DNA of 48,266 bases from the IMG/VR virus record IMGVR_UViG_3300009180_002437. The stretch is one strand, 5' to 3'. Shown here piece by piece: positions 2,315-23,661 of the stretch. How positions within the stretch are numbered: position 1 is the first letter of the stretch; every line of letters starts with the position of its first letter. Source of the stretch: a virus (Duplodnaviria > Heunggongvirae > Uroviricota > Caudoviricetes). The translations under genes were made by a program, and so were the position numbers. The notes below the pieces were generated by a model. The model had not been told where the DNA came from and ran no database searches. It saw nothing but the letters and a program-made list of their open reading frames with translations.

Positions 2315-3073
2315 ATGTATTATTATATCTACCAAATCACTAATTTAACGAATGGTAAGATTTATGTCGGAAAACATAAATCATCACTACATCCATCTAT
2401 AAACGGATATTATGGATCCGGCAAACAGATAATGTCTGCCATACAAAAATATGGCATAGAAAACTTTAATAAAGAAGTCTTATACTATTGCTCTTCATTG
2501 GAAGAAATGGCCGTCAAAGAAGCAGAAATCGTTACAGAAGATTTTGTGAAAAGACACGATACTTACAATATGCACAAAGGTGGCCTCGGAGGATGGGATC
2601 ACTGGAATGGTAGTGATGAACATCTTGAAAAATCTAGATTAGGTGGAAAGAAAAGTGCTAGTAGATCTAATAATCCATTTAAAGATCCTGAGTTTCAAAA
2701 AACAGTAGAATGGTCAAGGGCTCCTGATAGAATGAAAACGATAGGACAAAAAGCAACTACGCCAGAAGCAAAAGCTAAACGAAAAACTACATTTTTAAAA
2801 ATAGGACATAGTCAAGGTGAAAAAAATTCGCAGTTTGGGAGAATATGGATATCTAATATATTGACAAAGGAAGTGAAACGTATTAGAATAAGTGATATTA
2901 TTCCAGAAGGTTGGGTTAGAGGTAAAAAAGGACACCTTGCCAAGGAATGTTGGGTAAATAATGGTATCAAAGAACATTTTATAGATTTAAGTAAAAAGCA
3001 GGAATACTTAAATAATGGGTTTAGTAGTGGTAGACTAAGGAAGAGTATGCCACAAAATAGAATTGTAGTTTAA
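2315..3073 (+). CDS. GIY-YIG (Seg-like) homing endonuclease
   Basis: N-terminal YIYQITN...IYVGKH...YYGSG...IQKYGIENF, C-terminal GEKNSQFG/GWVRG DNA-binding-type modules; own TAAATA at 2304-2309. Confidence 0.85.
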   Translation: MYYYIYQITNLTNGKIYVGKHKSSLHPSINGYYGSGKQIMSAIQKYGIENFNKEVLYYCSSLEEMAVKEAEIVTEDFVKRHDTYNMHKGGLGGWDHWNGSDEHLEKSRLGGKKSASRSNNPFKDPEFQKTVEWSRAPDRMKTIGQKATTPEAKAKRKTTFLKIGHSQGEKNSQFGRIWISNILTKEVKRIRISDIIPEGWVRGKKGHLAKECWVNNGIKEHFIDLSKKQEYLNNGFSSGRLRKSMPQNRIVV

Positions 3074-3084
3074 TGCTTTAAGAG

Positions 3085-3129
3085 AAAGGTGCTTCGGACG
3101 GGAGGGGCAGAGCCTCCCCGGGTCCACCA
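3085..3129 (+). ncRNA. ssrA: permuted tmRNA, acceptor piece (3' tRNA-like half)
   Basis: TGCTTCG-GAC-GGGAGG-GGCAGAG-CCTCCC-CGGGTCC-A-CCA; CGGGTCC pairs with GGGCCCG at 3227 giving the G3.U70 Ala identity. 5' boundary uncertain. Confidence 0.85.
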
Positions 3130-3226
3130 GAAAGAACTCTCCCTAGTGATCTGTAAGCTAGTGGAATTAGTAATATACATAAACAGCTAGGTGTATGTTA
3201 TGAACGACAAGAGAGTTCTTCCTAAT

Positions 3227-3450
3227 GGGCCCGACTTAGATTCGACGGGGTGATTAGTATCAAGGAGATCTACACGGTAGGCGATGACCGCAAATCAAGC
3301 AAAAAACCTAGACGCAAACGCATCTAAAGGCGAAGTAACTGTATCAGCTGGCAAAGGAATTCGTTTCTCTGCTCGTGGTTCAGTGAAAGCCGAAACTTTC
3401 GCAGTTTAATCACTGGCGTAGGGTAGTTATACCTAGTAACAGAAAATAGC
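3227..3450 (+). ncRNA. ssrA: permuted tmRNA, coding piece
   Basis: GGGCCCG-ACTTAGATTCGAC-GGGGTG is a tmRNA 5' signature lying downstream of the CCA half. The intervening segment is closed by AAGAACTCTC/GAGAGTTCTT. 3' end approximate. Confidence 0.85.
3314..3409 (+). other. tmRNA tag reading frame ANASKGEVTVSAGKGIRFSARGSVKAETFAV*
   Basis: Resume codon GCA AAC after AAACCTAGAC context; 31 codons then TAA. Confidence 0.75.
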
Positions 3451-3544: not shown

Positions 3545-4600
3545 ATGGCACACTTTTTAAAATCAGGTAATACATACAAAGTCGCTTCAGAAGAAGCAAT
3601 GGATATTCATTCTACATTGCCAGCTGGCAACTATGTAATCAAGATTGACATGTTTGAAAACTTGTACCTTGAACACATTGATAGCTTTACGGTATCAGGT
3701 AAGATTTACGGTGATACACTTAAGAATACAGATCGTATTATCAACACATTCTGGGAACGTCCTAGTTCTACTGGCGTAATGCTGACAGGAGAGAAAGGGT
3801 CGGGGAAGACATTACTAAGCAAAAAGATCAGCATTGAGCTGGCTAAGCAAGAGGTACCAACCATTGTTATTAACGATGCGTTTACAGGCGAGAAGTTTAA
3901 CACACTATTACAAACTATTAGTCAACCTTGTGTTATCTTGTTTGACGAGTTTGAAAAGGTCTATGACAAAGACGAGCAAGAAGCTATTCTTACCCTACTG
4001 GATGGAGTGTACTCAGGTAAGAAATTGTTTATTCTAACTTGTAATGACAAGTGGCGTGTTGATCAACATATGCGTAATCGTCCTGGTCGTATTTTTTACA
4101 TGATTGACTTTACTGGGTTGTCACAAGAATTTATCGTTGAATACTGCGAAGATAATCTTAAACACAAGGAACACATTGAACGTATTTGTTCATTGACTAA
4201 CTTGTTCGCTGAGTTTAACTTTGACATGCTTAAAGCACTTGTTGAAGAAATGAATCGCTACAACGAAGCTCCGCAGGACGCAATGAAAATTCTAAACACC
4301 AAGCCTGAATTTGATTCAGGATGCCGGTATGATATTTCATTGATTGTTGAAGGTAAAGTACTTGATGTTACAACTTATCCTGAAGTTTTTGAAGGTAACC
4401 CACTTGCCAATACTGTTCAGATTGAGTATGATGGGGAGAAGGACGAGGATGGTGATAGCACATGGACACGCAATCGCTTTAGCCCACAAGATTTAGTCAA
4501 GGTGGATAACAACGGTGCCAGATTTGTTTTTGAGAACAACGGCATTCGGTTGATGCTAACTCGCATTAAGGCAAAAACTTATAACCCATATGCGTTTTAA
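3545..4600 (+). CDS. AAA+ family ATPase
   Basis: Walker A GEKGSGKT, Walker B ILFDEFEK, sensor/Arg finger TCN...RPGR. Confidence 0.9.
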   Translation: MAHFLKSGNTYKVASEEAMDIHSTLPAGNYVIKIDMFENLYLEHIDSFTVSGKIYGDTLKNTDRIINTFWERPSSTGVMLTGEKGSGKTLLSKKISIELAKQEVPTIVINDAFTGEKFNTLLQTISQPCVILFDEFEKVYDKDEQEAILTLLDGVYSGKKLFILTCNDKWRVDQHMRNRPGRIFYMIDFTGLSQEFIVEYCEDNLKHKEHIERICSLTNLFAEFNFDMLKALVEEMNRYNEAPQDAMKILNTKPEFDSGCRYDISLIVEGKVLDVTTYPEVFEGNPLANTVQIEYDGEKDEDGDSTWTRNRFSPQDLVKVDNNGARFVFENNGIRLMLTRIKAKTYNPYAF

Positions 4601-4604
4601 TAAT

Positions 4605-4623
4605 AAGCCCTTCGGGGCTTTTT
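4605..4623 (+). terminator. intrinsic terminator
   Basis: AAGCCC-TTCG-GGGCTT followed by T-run. Confidence 0.9.
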
Positions 4624-4656
4624 GTTGTAATAACGCAACTATTTTTATCAAAATGC

Positions 4657-4757
4657 TTGCTTTTATACGGTTATTTGCGTATAATTTATACATTGACTAA
4701 ATAACTTTACAAACTTCCTAAAAAGAAGTTGACAATTAAATCACTTAGCATTAAAAT
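4657..4757 (+). promoter_or_regulatory. tandem promoters upstream of leader ORF
   Basis: TTGCTT-N17-TATAAT (4657-4685), TAAATA (4698-4703) and TTGACA-N17-TAAAAT (4729-4757). Confidence 0.7.
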
Positions 4758-4765
4758 AACTTAAC

Positions 4766-4924
4766 ATGAAAAACACAAGCCATTCCATATCGTATCAGTT
4801 GCCCCAGACACTAGCATTATGCTGGAGTCCAGTGGTGGCCTTACGCTCAGGAAATGATTCAGTATTTAATATGATTGAAACAGGCAAGGAGTATAGTGGG
4901 GTTCGAGAAGGATGTGATGGTTAA
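4766..4924 (+). CDS. putative attenuator leader peptide (52 aa)
   Basis: MKNTSHSISYQLPQTLALCWSPVVALRSGNDSVFNMIETGKEYSGVREGCDG*, directly after a promoter and 28 nt before a terminator hairpin. Confidence 0.55.
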   Translation: MKNTSHSISYQLPQTLALCWSPVVALRSGNDSVFNMIETGKEYSGVREGCDG

Positions 4925-4952
4925 GAAATAGCTAACATCGTAAACTTTAAGG

Positions 4953-4989
4953 ACCCTGGACTAGAAATACTCCAGGGTTTTTTGTTTTT
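4953..4989 (+). terminator. attenuator-type intrinsic terminator
   Basis: ACCCTGGA-CTAGAAATAC-TCCAGGGT followed by TTTTTGTTTTT. Confidence 0.8.
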
Positions 4990-5113
4990 GTAGTGAGTGT
5001 GATGGGTAACGCGAGCCTGTAGCGCACTTTAAACATGCTACTATTAATGTGGGCGGAATACCGGATGATAAGTTCCTGGCGATAACGGGAATGTGTAAAA
5101 TGGTATAATATAA
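4990..5113 (+). ncRNA. candidate small structured RNA / leader
   Basis: ORF-free; helices GTAGC/GCTAC, ATACC/GGTAT and GTTCCTG/CGGGAAT seen by eye. Confidence 0.4.
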
Positions 5114-5191
5114 GGTGAGGTGGCAGAGTGGTCCATTGCACTGGATTGCAAATCCGGAAAACCGTCGGTTCGACTCCGACCCTCACCTCCA
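5114..5191 (+). tRNA. tRNA-Cys (GCA)
   Basis: Cloverleaf, U73 discriminator, CCA. Confidence 0.92.
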
Positions 5192-5214
5192 ATTGTTGTA
5201 TTTTAGCACAGTAG

Positions 5215-5243
5215 TTGACAGTTAATTCAACTACAGCTATAAT
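5215..5243 (+). promoter_or_regulatory. sigma70-type promoter upstream of large ncRNA
   Basis: TTGACA-N17-TATAAT. Confidence 0.85.
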
Positions 5244-5286
5244 GTTTGTATAGTAAGAAATGCAGTAAACGTTCTTTAAAAAACAG

Positions 5287-5376
5287 ACGCAATATTGAAG
5301 TGTATTACACGAACTAGTCCCGAATTAGCAATAGCATTGCAGAGGTCATATCGTGTAATACACTTCAATATTGCGT
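5287..5376. repeat. long-hairpin element E1 (ATATTGAAG family)
   Basis: Perfect 26-bp inverted repeat 5287-5312/5351-5376 with a 38-nt loop. Confidence 0.9.
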
Positions 5377-6090
5377 AAGCAAAAAGTCCACGGCAACCTA
5401 ATCAGTGCCTAGTCTGAGCCCAGACGATGAAGTAGCTGTGATGGCTACGGGTGGTTCGAGCAAGGGTCTACCTCTGGTAACGGAGATGAAGAATCTGCTC
5501 CAGCGAAAGCTGCGGTCTAACCTAACCGGCGTTTGCACACGAGAGTTCTCCTTGGTCGGTGAAGCGGATGGAAGGCATAGTTAGTCAACTTCTCTATGCT
5601 ATAGTTACCGCCGCAGGGAGAAAGCACTTAGTTGTTATTAGTTGTATTGTTTTGGAAAATTCCAGTGTTCACTTGGAAAATGCACAGGCGATGGATCCTC
5701 CGTCTAGCTAGCGCGATCTAAACTGTTGCCTGAAACGAAAGCAAGATCAGCATTGGCCAATGCCCTTGTATAAGAGTTCAGCGATAAAAGCAAACGACAA
5801 TAGGGTTATTGTTGTCCATAACGAGACAATACAACTAATGACAATGGTGGCTATAGTATAATAGCAGATAGCATTCACTTATAGGAATCCCGGCGTCCCT
5901 AGCCGTTATTAACAGGGCGTGAATTAACTCCACGATAAAGTTAAGGGTGCTTACGATCTACCTTAGAGTCCCTCTGTCGGGAGCCTGAAAAAATCGTAGG
6001 GTGTTGCTGAACATGCCCATACTCATAGAGAATAATCAGACGGACAGGGTAGACAACTCCGGTAGGGGCCGAAGGGATTCGGTAGCCTAC
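5377..6090 (+). ncRNA. large ornate structured ncRNA (GOLLD/ROOL size class, family unassigned)
   Basis: ~700 nt without an ORF in a tRNA island. Many GNRA hairpins and long-range helices: 5632-5653/5823-5844, 5466-5472/6048-6054, 5530-5536/5790-5796, 5622-5629/5945-5952, 5776-5782/6006-6012. Confidence 0.75.
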
Positions 6091-6163
6091 ACCATATTGA
6101 AGTACATTCTGGTGGTATAAATTTGATAAACCAGGAAACGAGCGGAGTGTATTTCAATATGGT
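6091..6163. repeat. long-hairpin element E2
   Basis: 20-bp stem ACCATATTGAAGTACATTCT / GGAGTGTATTTCAATATGGT. Confidence 0.85.
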
Positions 6164-6210
6164 AACCCTGTCCAAGTGCAATGGTCACACGCCCTTGCTT
6201 GGATGGACTG

Positions 6211-6319
6211 TTACCATATTGAAGTGTATTAAACGCCAACAAGAAGAAGGCGGTCCAGCGTCAACTGGGCGAAGTTGCGTTTGACGGTGCAAGAGATTTA
6301 ATATATTTCAATATGGTAA
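6211..6319. repeat. long-hairpin element E3
   Basis: 23-bp stem TTACCATATTGAAGTGTATTAAA / TTTAATATATTTCAATATGGTAA. Confidence 0.85.
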
Positions 6320-6329
6320 TAAAGAATTA

Positions 6330-6407
6330 GGCCAATGGGACTGCATGGTGTGGTCGCCCGCCTGTCACGCGGGATATCGATGGGATCGTTACCCATATTG
6401 GTCGCCA
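6330..6407 (+). tRNA. tRNA-Asp (GTC)
   Basis: CCCGC-CTGTCAC-GCGGG anticodon arm, G73, CCA; atypical T-loop ATCGTTA. Confidence 0.88.
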
Positions 6408-6415
6408 AAGTTATC

Positions 6416-6492
6416 CTCGTTGAGATCCAGTGTTATGGTCGGGTGTTTGACTACACTTTAAGCTGTGGTTAGAATCCACAGGACGAGGGCCA
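6416..6492 (+). tRNA. aberrant tRNA-like gene (anticodon undefined; possible pseudo-tRNA)
   Basis: Acceptor CCTCGTT/GACGAGG, D arm GATC/GGTC, 6-bp T stem with loop TTAGAAT, CCA end; anticodon loop is 6 or 8 nt (TTTGACTA). Confidence 0.55.
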
Positions 6493-8642: not shown

Positions 8643-8735
8643 GAGTAGTAATGCAGCGGGGTTGGTCCTGCGACCAGCCTTGAAAACTGGGTTCTCTGTA
8701 ATGGGGATGGGGTTCGACTCCTCTGCTACTCGCCA
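8643..8735 (+). tRNA. tRNA-Ser (TGA)
   Basis: Long variable arm, G73, CCA. Confidence 0.9.
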
Positions 8736-11436: not shown

Positions 11437-11465
11437 TTGACAGTAATAGTAAAGCACTATATAAT
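11437..11465 (+). promoter_or_regulatory. sigma70-type promoter
   Basis: TTGACA-N17-TATAAT. Confidence 0.85.
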
Positions 11466-11473
11466 AGTAACAT

Positions 11474-11558
11474 GCGAGAGTGGTGGAATTGGTATACACA
11501 CAAGACTTAAAATCTTGCGCCTTATGGATTGAGGGTTCAAGTCCCTCCTTTCGCACCA
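11474..11558 (+). tRNA. tRNA-Leu (TAA)
   Basis: CAAGA-CTTAAAA-TCTTG, long variable arm, CCA. Confidence 0.92.
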
Positions 11559-14575: not shown

Positions 14576-14651
14576 CCACCCTAAGCTAATCTAGTGAAAG
14601 CGCCAGTTTGAAGAACTGGATAGTCTGGAGCGTAACCAGGAGGGTGGACCA
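14576..14651 (+). tRNA. tRNA-Phe (GAA)
   Basis: CCAGT-TTGAAGA-ACTGG; T-loop AGCGTAA; CCA. Confidence 0.88.
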
Positions 14652-14735: not shown

Positions 14736-14764
14736 TTGACAATTAATTGAAGTTCAACTATAAT
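14736..14764 (+). promoter_or_regulatory. sigma70-type promoter
   Basis: TTGACA-N17-TATAAT. Confidence 0.85.
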
Positions 14765-14772
14765 AGTTTAAT

Positions 14773-14847
14773 GTGATCGTAGCTCAGAGGAAGAGCAGGG
14801 TGCTTTTAACGCCAAGGTCGAGATTTCGAAATTCTCCGGTCACACCA
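14773..14847 (+). tRNA. tRNA-Lys (TTT)
   Basis: Loop CTTTTAA, cloverleaf, CCA. Confidence 0.9.
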
Positions 14848-23445: not shown

Positions 23446-23661
23446 ATGGCAGCGAAAGGCGGCAATCAAAGAAATCAAATAGCAGATCCAATGAAAACCA
23501 AAACAGGTAAAACTCGGTTAGGTCCATTGGGTATACATCAGTTGGAAGAATTATTAAGCAAGTCAAGTCGTCCCAAAGACAAAGCTAAAATTAAAAATCA
23601 TATTCGTATGGTTAAATCACGTAAAGGGTTCGTCGAAGCAGTACCCGTAGTGTCCTCGTAA
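23446..23661 (+). CDS. small basic hypothetical protein
   Basis: 71-aa K/R-rich ORF, AAGGA RBS, TATAAATA at 23419-23426. Confidence 0.75.
   Translation: MAAKGGNQRNQIADPMKTKTGKTRLGPLGIHQLEELLSKSSRPKDKAKIKNHIRMVKSRKGFVEAVPVVSS

Follow-up and report, generated by a model that had tools for sequence, protein, structure and literature searches.

The stretch of DNA analyzed here (the window, 48,266 nucleotides (nt) in length) is part of a 59.7-kb uncultured virus record, IMGVR_UViG_3300009180_002437, from the Caudoviricetes, and its first 24 kb carry an island of RNA genes on the + strand. Within this island is a compact unit that consists of two promoters, a 52-codon open reading frame (ORF), an intrinsic terminator, a structured RNA and a gene for cysteine transfer RNA (tRNA-Cys). 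An earlier reading of the window (the original prediction) had described this unit as a ribosome-dependent attenuator whose leader uses all 20 amino acids and reports general translation stress. On the basis of comparisons with related units in other phages, we hold with moderate confidence that it is a ribosome-mediated transcription attenuator, which in the window stands before the structured RNA and tRNA-Cys and in distant relatives before long tRNA arrays.

Both of the promoters that had been proposed are present, and all features of the unit lie on the + strand. Promoter P1 (4657-4685; TTGCTT, 17 nt, TATAAT) would give a leader mRNA with a 5′ untranslated region (UTR) of about 70 nt; in 8 homologues it is found with a TTGxTT -35 element, a 17-nt spacer and an invariant TATAAT. 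Promoter P2 (4729-4757) consists of TTGACA (4729-4734), 17 nt and TAAAAT (4752-4757), with 11 of 12 consensus matches. In the homologues the TTGACA of P2 is invariant, the -10 element is TAAAAT or TACAAT, and the 8-nt gap to the ATG is kept in 12 of 13. Because the ATG at 4766 lies just 8 nt past the -10 element, the mRNA from P2 would be leaderless or nearly so. A small hairpin conserved in the alignments (ACTTC...GAAGT, 4713-4729) adjoins the P2 -35 element. Distant lineages have the motif GACTAAATAAC... directly 5′ of the ATG. The window clade has two copies of it, one at 4701-4716 after P1 and a diverged one at 4750-4765 as the P2 -10 region, and this doubling suggests that a segment of about 50 nt with P2 in it arose by insertion or duplication.

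The leader ORF (4766-4924; 52 codons from the ATG at 4766 to the TAA at 4922-4924) was confirmed to contain all 20 amino acids in its translation. A 5′ hairpin within it (4798-4836) holds the Cys-Trp codons and the segment CTGGAGTCCAG (4822-4832); RNAalifold places its helices at alignment columns 37-41/71-75 and 46-55/59-68, with 97% of cells paired and several changes to G-U wobble, and it is possibly a pause hairpin. Minimum free energy (MFE) folding and the pairing of alignment columns place the 5′ strand of a predicted antiterminator at codons 41-47 (4888-4904, with a conserved inner part at 4894-4904). Its 3′ strand (4951-4973), for which duplex energy was also used, covers the entire 5′ arm, the loop and part of the 3′ arm of the terminator. 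Between the two strands lies a hairpin that includes the stop codon (4908-4947; RNAalifold helix at columns 147-186), in which 14 pairs are 98.9% paired with one-sided compatible changes at 7 of them. The terminator (4954-4989), which had been predicted to be strong, has a 7-bp G+C-rich stem (CCCTGGA at 4954-4960, TCCAGGG at 4971-4977) with a folding energy of -11.5 kcal/mol, or -15 with its A/U extension, and a T-tract at 4978-4989; a promoter/terminator consensus scan overlooked it solely for its 10-nt loop. The structured RNA and tRNA-Cys (anticodon GCA, 5114-5191, from the tRNA scan) follow in the predicted order, and the latter is the first gene past the putative switch in the window clade.

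When viral and metagenome contigs were searched by pattern and by profile, 13 distinct homologues with 80-98% identity came up, all of which have tRNA-Cys 3′ of the unit. The ATG, frame, length and stop position (TAA or TGA) of the ORF are kept in all 13 with zero indels, unlike the 3′ UTR, the terminator loop and the T-tract, where indels are present. Substitutions in the ORF are distributed over the three codon positions as 13/16/23. The pooled ratio of nonsynonymous to synonymous differences per site (pN/pS) is 0.45 in the ORF frame versus 0.95 and 0.75 in the other frames, and in a large cluster of distant units it is 0.66 in frame versus 0.98 and 1.06 out of frame. For the adjoining ATPase gene, pN/pS is 0.08-0.14 at similar pS (0.32-0.57). 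The indel-free ORF and the in-frame pN/pS, set against the ATPase values, indicate that the frame is under purifying selection that is specific to it but weak or relaxed, with the peptide sequence weakly constrained. The columns that are fixed in the large cluster are mostly single-copy rare residues (Cys, His, Trp, Tyr and Phe), and the sole His codon is at codon 6, 10 or 31 across lineages of the window clade. The fixed rare residues and the moving His fit selection for one of each amino acid, not selection for a folded peptide. A protein search with the leader peptide returned the window's own cluster alone.

The same layout is found in phages whose ATPase is just ~60% identical, where it lies 5′ of the first tRNA array (Gln-Gln-Thr-Arg-Arg-Trp-His...). 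In these distant relatives an A/T-rich motif is followed by the ATG, an ORF of 44-50 codons, a spacer of 25-37 nt with a small hairpin, a G+C-rich terminator and the conserved RNA. Anchoring on this downstream RNA, 31 distinct units were gathered from lake phages. All 20 amino acids are present in 27 of the 31 (44-52 codons), whereas real gene segments from the same loci contain all 20 kinds in 1.4% of cases at 44 codons and in 4.0% at 52. The peptides form five clusters below 55% identity, and units with all 20 amino acids occur in every cluster. BLASTP of the window peptide against the peptides of three related loci, L035, L264 (4085-4237) and L279 (6474-6617), found no similarity. The distance from the stop codon to the terminator stem is 25-37 nt in all units, and an intrinsic terminator lies between the leader ORF and the downstream genes in all of them, with a poor T-tract in L051 and L072. 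The ORF is kept open in the 13 close and in ~25 distant units; a Shine-Dalgarno-like AAGAGAG precedes the ATG in L279, and the P2 start would be leaderless or nearly so. The original prediction implied that the ORF and its pairings should persist in related phages, and both the ORF and the first of the two proposed pairings are kept in the 13 homologues, with the layout extending to the 31 units.

The tRNA genes of the phage itself were considered as well. A default scan found 25 tRNAs in the window, and ARAGORN at a relaxed threshold added tRNA-Ser(UGA) at 8647-8731 and tRNA-Phe(GAA) at 14576-14651, both found at that threshold only, together with a tRNA-like match at 6415-6492 whose anticodon is not readable and whose identity is unassigned. 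The two scans combined give phage tRNAs for all 20 amino acids and 25 anticodon species, 24 of which are sampled by the window leader (p = 0.007). For the window alone, the presence of all 20 amino acids in 52 codons has p = 0.04-0.08. The statistics from the window are each modest, and the weight comes from the family comparison, which indicates at the sequence level that complete amino-acid coverage is selected across lineages.

A second leader-like unit was observed in the distant relative L264 (2160-2305, - strand), between a tRNA and a tRNA array. It has a TTGACA promoter, an AAGGA ribosome-binding site, a strong terminator and a 33-codon ORF with 18 kinds of amino acid (chance ~6%), and it gave a weak Rfam match to Trp_leader (E = 0.08). 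This was the only exception when Rfam was searched with the window and five related loci, in which neither leader nor downstream RNA had a match; a search with 4729-5113 found no match to any leader family (Trp_leader, His_leader, Leu_leader, Thr_leader and others) at E ≤ 1. A candidate for a second such unit in the window, formed by an ORF at 23446-23661 and a terminator before tRNA-Thr, was rejected as an ordinary gene for a basic protein with a ribosome-binding site, followed by a tRNA with its own promoter.

In the MFE fold of the 232-nt leader RNA, a 17-bp helix between 4888-4904 and 4951-4973 forms in place of the terminator. The pairing of GGGGTTC (4898-4904) with GGACCCT (4951-4957), which the original prediction had pointed out, is real and is contained in this helix. 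Its inner part (4894-4904 with 4951-4963; columns 133-143/190-202) has 11 pairs that are 100% paired in the 13 homologues, and pair 142/191 varies between U-A, U-G and C-G. The duplex of the upstream region with the terminator in the window has an energy of -21.3 kcal/mol, compared with -15.8 +/- 2.7 kcal/mol in dinucleotide shuffles (p = 0.03). At columns 198/211 of the terminator, A-U has replaced G-C, a compensatory change, in 6-7 of the 13 homologues; double-sided covariation in the leader RNA is limited to two pairs, including one in the terminator. A candidate helix of the 1:2 type (columns 77-83/135-141) is 94.5% paired with one-sided changes only, and the free RNA favours the antiterminator. 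The original prediction had also proposed that CTGGAGTCCAG could disrupt the terminator by pairing with either of its arms. The complementarity to both arms does exist in the window, but it is not conserved, and the pairing was rejected as a conserved element of the mechanism: 7 of 13 homologues have lost the C-G pair with the 5′ arm (columns 68/198), no covariation is seen, and the segment lies in the conserved local hairpin.

To compare lineages, the best duplex partner of the terminator 5′ arm (with 8 nt of flank) was sought within the last 75 nt of the ORF plus the spacer in ten lineages, against dinucleotide shuffles. The best partner was located between -31 and +7 from the first base of the stop codon in all ten, with different sequences involved in different lineages. 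This location is under or just behind a ribosome that is finishing the ORF. The p values for partner energy are 0.002-0.13 per lineage and combine by Fisher's method to p = 4e-8, a value that overstates independence and significance because the lineages are related, which detracts from the case for a switch. Modelling thus suggests an antiterminator that excludes the terminator and whose 5′ strand can be reached by a ribosome ending the ORF.

Each leader was also folded, through the last base of the terminator stem, while 29 nt were kept unpaired, as under a ribosome, at successive A-site codons. In the window clade the predicted probability of the terminator is ~0 for free RNA or with the ribosome at codons 1-37, and 0.8-1.0 at codons 39-51. 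The computation of alternative folds, which the original prediction had proposed as a check, gives a clean switch for this clade, the terminator being predicted just when the ribosome is at codons 39-51. Units of the L035 type behave similarly in this calculation.

The conserved RNA follows the terminator in every lineage, at 4997-5108 in the window, L035:9608-9718, L264:3899-4009 (- strand) and L279:6698-6808, and it contains covarying helices. Its features in the window are a GUGUG/CGCAC helix, GGGCGG, a GAUGA...GUAAAA internal loop around a hairpin with a 7-nt GCGAUAA loop, and an outer helix AUACC/GGUAU. Across lineages there is a first helix of the GUGC/GCAC type around AACGAG.CUG, then GGGCGG, and then an outer helix that encloses a GAUGA...GAGUAAAA internal loop (K-turn-like) and a hairpin with a 7-nt loop of the GNGRUAA type. 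For the outer helix, the window has AUACC/GGUAU and the form-B relatives have CUAGA/UCUAG, with UGAUAG/CUUUCA elsewhere; these are complementary substitutions, and a lone long-range pair covaries repeatedly between lineages as G-C, C-G or U-A. These substitutions indicate that what occupies 4997-5108 is a genuine structured RNA instead of a spacer; the pair-wise screen for covarying columns was too noisy to give its full structure. Covariance model R1, built from distant members, found the form-B relatives L006 and L008 at E ~1e-4 and scored form A of the window at 4 bits (E = 1.3). Because R1 misses form A, homology of the window RNA rests on the within-clade alignment and the shared motifs.

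The sequence TGgTATAAT just before tRNA-Cys (5101-5109) resembles an extended -10 element, and it is also the 3′ strand of the outer helix, which pairs with AUACC at 5068-5072. Unrelated complementary strands replace it in other lineages, so that it may not be a dedicated promoter. In the form-B relatives no promoter-like sequence was found between the terminator and tRNA-Cys, and therefore the expression of tRNA-Cys, at least there, has to rely on read-through. In two studies, RNA libraries yielded contigs that run across the terminator (4789-5055 and 4723-5245); this is weak evidence, since such libraries can hold DNA, and it shows just that joined molecules exist. The region 4300-4722 had no contig in four RNA runs; since these are assembled contigs, this is uninformative on ATPase expression, and depth cannot rank the genes.

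The elements of the unit, their conservation, the selection for coverage, the positions of the competing pairings and the equilibrium folding are what the following model is built on. Transcription would start at P2, 8 nt before the ATG, or at P1, and a ribosome would load on the nascent RNA and trail the polymerase. When decoding is fast, the ribosome would be on codons 39-51 (4880-4921) while the polymerase makes 4951-4977, and it would hide the G-rich strand at 4888-4904. The terminator hairpin would then form, and most transcripts would stop at the T-tract. Should the ribosome be held up at any codon before these, or be absent, 4888-4904 would be free to pair with 4951-4973 and block the terminator, and the polymerase would continue into the conserved RNA and the tRNA. 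Because the leader needs every amino acid and 24 of the 25 phage tRNA species, a shortage of any single one would raise read-through, giving negative feedback between decoding speed and tRNA supply. The original claim of a translated leader with all 20 amino acids that is coupled to a terminator and an antiterminator is supported, as far as sequence and folding models reach, by the coverage, the position of the antiterminator, the spacing, the selection on the frame and the footprint folding. The phage probably adjusts its tRNA output to the reading speed of the ribosome in this manner. That the trigger is depletion or cleavage of host tRNAs, as first suggested, is speculation.

A number of observations weigh against this model. 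We infer, and do not observe, that the ORF is translated, that the hairpin terminates transcription, and what the direction and size of the response are. The leader has no run of regulatory codons, which is the classical sign of an attenuator, and just 1-2 Cys codons stand before tRNA-Cys; single codons are a weak stall signal in classical attenuators. Codons cognate to the phage tRNAs are not enriched in the leader (47 of 52, versus a mean of 44.3 in ordinary genes; p = 0.2). The remaining 4 of the 31 units have 19 kinds of amino acid and are without Cys, and two of these four, L051 and L072, also have a poor T-tract. With the ribosome exactly at the stop codon the antiterminator is predicted to re-form and the probability of the terminator is 0.02, a fall that is seen in 3 of 4 sequences of the window clade; termination would therefore depend on timing, which is beyond the present computation. 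In several other, distant lineages a stronger terminator is predicted to dominate at equilibrium at any position of the ribosome, and therefore the switch there, if real, would be kinetic. Most of the window's tRNA island is independent of the leader switch because it has strong internal promoters, e.g. at 5215-5243.

As a separate observation, the Cys-less units of L051/L053/L055 and L072 (e.g. L053:7615-7755) have TTAACC, not a T-tract, after the terminator, and they are possibly decaying or differently regulated copies. An attenuator specific for Cys, as might be imagined before tRNA-Cys, was rejected on the basis of the 1-2 Cys codons and the Gln arrays that follow the distant units.

Retention of the ORF could also mean that it is an ordinary phage gene for a 52-amino-acid protein with its own promoter and terminator, in which case the downstream RNA and tRNA would come from leaky read-through or from their own starts and the pairings would be incidental. 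This would account for the length and frame being kept in 13 close and ~25 distant units, for an in-frame pN/pS below 1, for the motifs ISLKQH, LWG and YPTSIRGxF that recur in the large cluster, for the TGgTATAAT just 5′ of tRNA-Cys in the window, and for the prediction of the peptide by gene callers in one cluster. However, the pN of the ORF is 5x that of the adjoining ATPase, with many radical replacements, and peptides that have no mutual BLASTP similarity nonetheless share 20 kinds of amino acid, for which a folded microprotein offers no reason. Nor would such a gene explain why the antiterminator is always at the end of the ORF, why the spacing from stop to terminator is fixed, or why TGgTATAAT is swapped for other complementary helix strands in other lineages, and we regard it as unlikely. 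A very unlikely explanation, in our judgment, is that the unit produces a stable non-coding small RNA of ~225 nt, running from promoter to terminator with a conserved single-stranded 5′ seed, and that the frame is incidental or occasionally translated. Invariant synonymous sites do occur in blocks (e.g. 4785-4802), 97% of the predicted pairs are compatible over the 13 sequences with many wobble-preserving changes, the fold has a z-score of -2.2, the unit sits among tRNA, transfer-messenger RNA (tmRNA) and other RNA genes, and four RNA libraries have contigs that include the region. An incidental frame, though, would not remain open at 44-52 codons with all 20 amino acids through turnover beyond BLASTP detection, the pN/pS asymmetry is confined to the ORF frame, L279 has its Shine-Dalgarno-like sequence, and the double-sided covarying pairs number just two, one of them in the terminator. 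A trans-acting small RNA with a Rho-independent terminator should have no selected reading frame, and here the frame is kept and its coverage is selected.

The other possibility is that a translation-coupled switch does exist with another logic or target: translation may promote read-through, the conserved RNA may be the main target, or the switch may serve infection timing. In every lineage the product that comes first past the terminator is the conserved RNA and not a tRNA, the first tRNA differs by clade (Cys versus Gln arrays), the equilibrium predictions vary between lineages and at the stop codon, and default read-through without ribosomes would mean expression early in infection. The stop codon, on the other hand, lies 25-37 nt before the stem, a distance at which a ribosome that terminates there could not melt the hairpin directly; a ribosome finishing the ORF would have the competing strand under its footprint; and complete coverage suits a decoding sensor better than a timer. 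We consider this reading unlikely as well. All three explanations are possible ones that fit the cross-lineage data less well than attenuation by the translated leader does.

With respect to its genomic setting, the window has its relatives among large phages of lake and bog metagenomes, whose contigs reach ~360 kb. When compared by blastn with cultured phages, the window unit was matched by its tRNA alone, a distant unit had no match, and no close cultured phage was found. The island of the window includes a permuted tmRNA at 3064-3355 and several consensus promoters of the sigma-70 type. Consensus TTGACA-17-TATAAT promoters at 11437-11474, 14736-14773 and 2092-2133 stop 9-13 nt short of mature tRNA 5′ ends, and therefore some tRNA precursors would have 5′ leaders of just ~2-6 nt. 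At 5215-6330, a consensus promoter is followed by ~1 kb that is hairpin-rich and has no long ORF; Rfam gave no match for this region at E ≤ 1 besides chance ones. The AAA-ATPase gene (3545-4600) adjoins the leader unit, and in very distant phages too it sits within tRNA islands. Its homologue in Microbacterium phage Pumpernickel (L300:6001-7065, 56% identity) is among ~25 tRNAs and near an RtcB-like RNA ligase, and the gene may have a function associated with tRNA islands. In the close relative L083 (5915-7221) the order is tRNA-Met, permuted tmRNA, leader unit and tRNA-Cys with no intervening ATPase or homing-endonuclease gene, and because of this order the leader unit is taken to be part of the RNA-gene core of the island.

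Phage tRNA genes are usually viewed as constitutive helpers for codon usage or as spares against host anticodon nucleases. To our knowledge, essentially nothing is known of how their expression is controlled, and full-text literature searches found no publication on leader-peptide control of tRNA genes. If the attenuator reading is true, it would give a virus a means of matching tRNA production to ribosome speed in real time, and it would extend leader-peptide attenuation from the sensing of amino acids and antibiotics to the tRNA pool. It would also explain the persistence, in many uncultured giant phages, of a short frame with almost no conserved peptide sequence, and the unit would be a compact natural part that reports global translation stress. 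The question of whether phage tRNAs respond to tRNA depletion becomes testable. A broader proposal, which we put forward as doubtful, is that the leader, with its full amino-acid set, makes up a two-stage "test message" device together with the terminator and the conserved RNA. With it a giant phage would gauge the whole decoding capacity of the cell and release a new regulatory or catalytic RNA along with a private set of tRNAs. The conserved RNA, with its K-turn-like loop, its lone covarying long-range pair and no Rfam family, would then be a new class of functional RNA tied to tRNA supply and not a passive spacer.

The best-known leader attenuators, trpL, hisL, leuL, thrL, ilvL and pheL of E. 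coli and Salmonella, control amino-acid operons. The phage unit is similar to the trpL/hisL type in its short leader ORF, its intrinsic terminator and a predicted antiterminator strand that would be covered by a ribosome finishing the ORF. A few tens of nt likewise separate the stop codon from the terminator, and by analogy stalling upstream would favour read-through. In contrast to this type, the phage leader is long (44-52 codons), has every amino acid and no codon run for a single one, and what it would control is tRNA genes and a structured RNA, where the classical leaders control biosynthetic enzymes. Untranslated RNA of the window clade is predicted to read through, with no superattenuation, and the helix of the 1:2 type is weakly supported. 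The phage unit is thus outside all curated leader families and lacks the codon run that defines the classical ones. T-boxes act without a ribosome: each binds a single uncharged tRNA directly, and the genes they control are aminoacyl-tRNA synthetase or amino-acid genes. The phage unit would resemble them as a cis-acting terminator/antiterminator switch that reports on the tRNA pool and feeds back on genes of translation supply; it differs in that a ribosome would do the reading and the tRNA genes themselves are the output. In the whiB7/wblC attenuator of Actinobacteria, the translation status of an upstream ORF (uORF) controls antitermination (PMC10274678). That uORF is enriched in alanine and controls a bacterial transcription factor (PMC10274678). 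The phage leader is instead balanced across the 20 amino acids, and the two have no sequence relationship. What the phage unit would share with the whiB7 uORF is antitermination under the control of translation and the breadth of what is sensed (PMC10274678).

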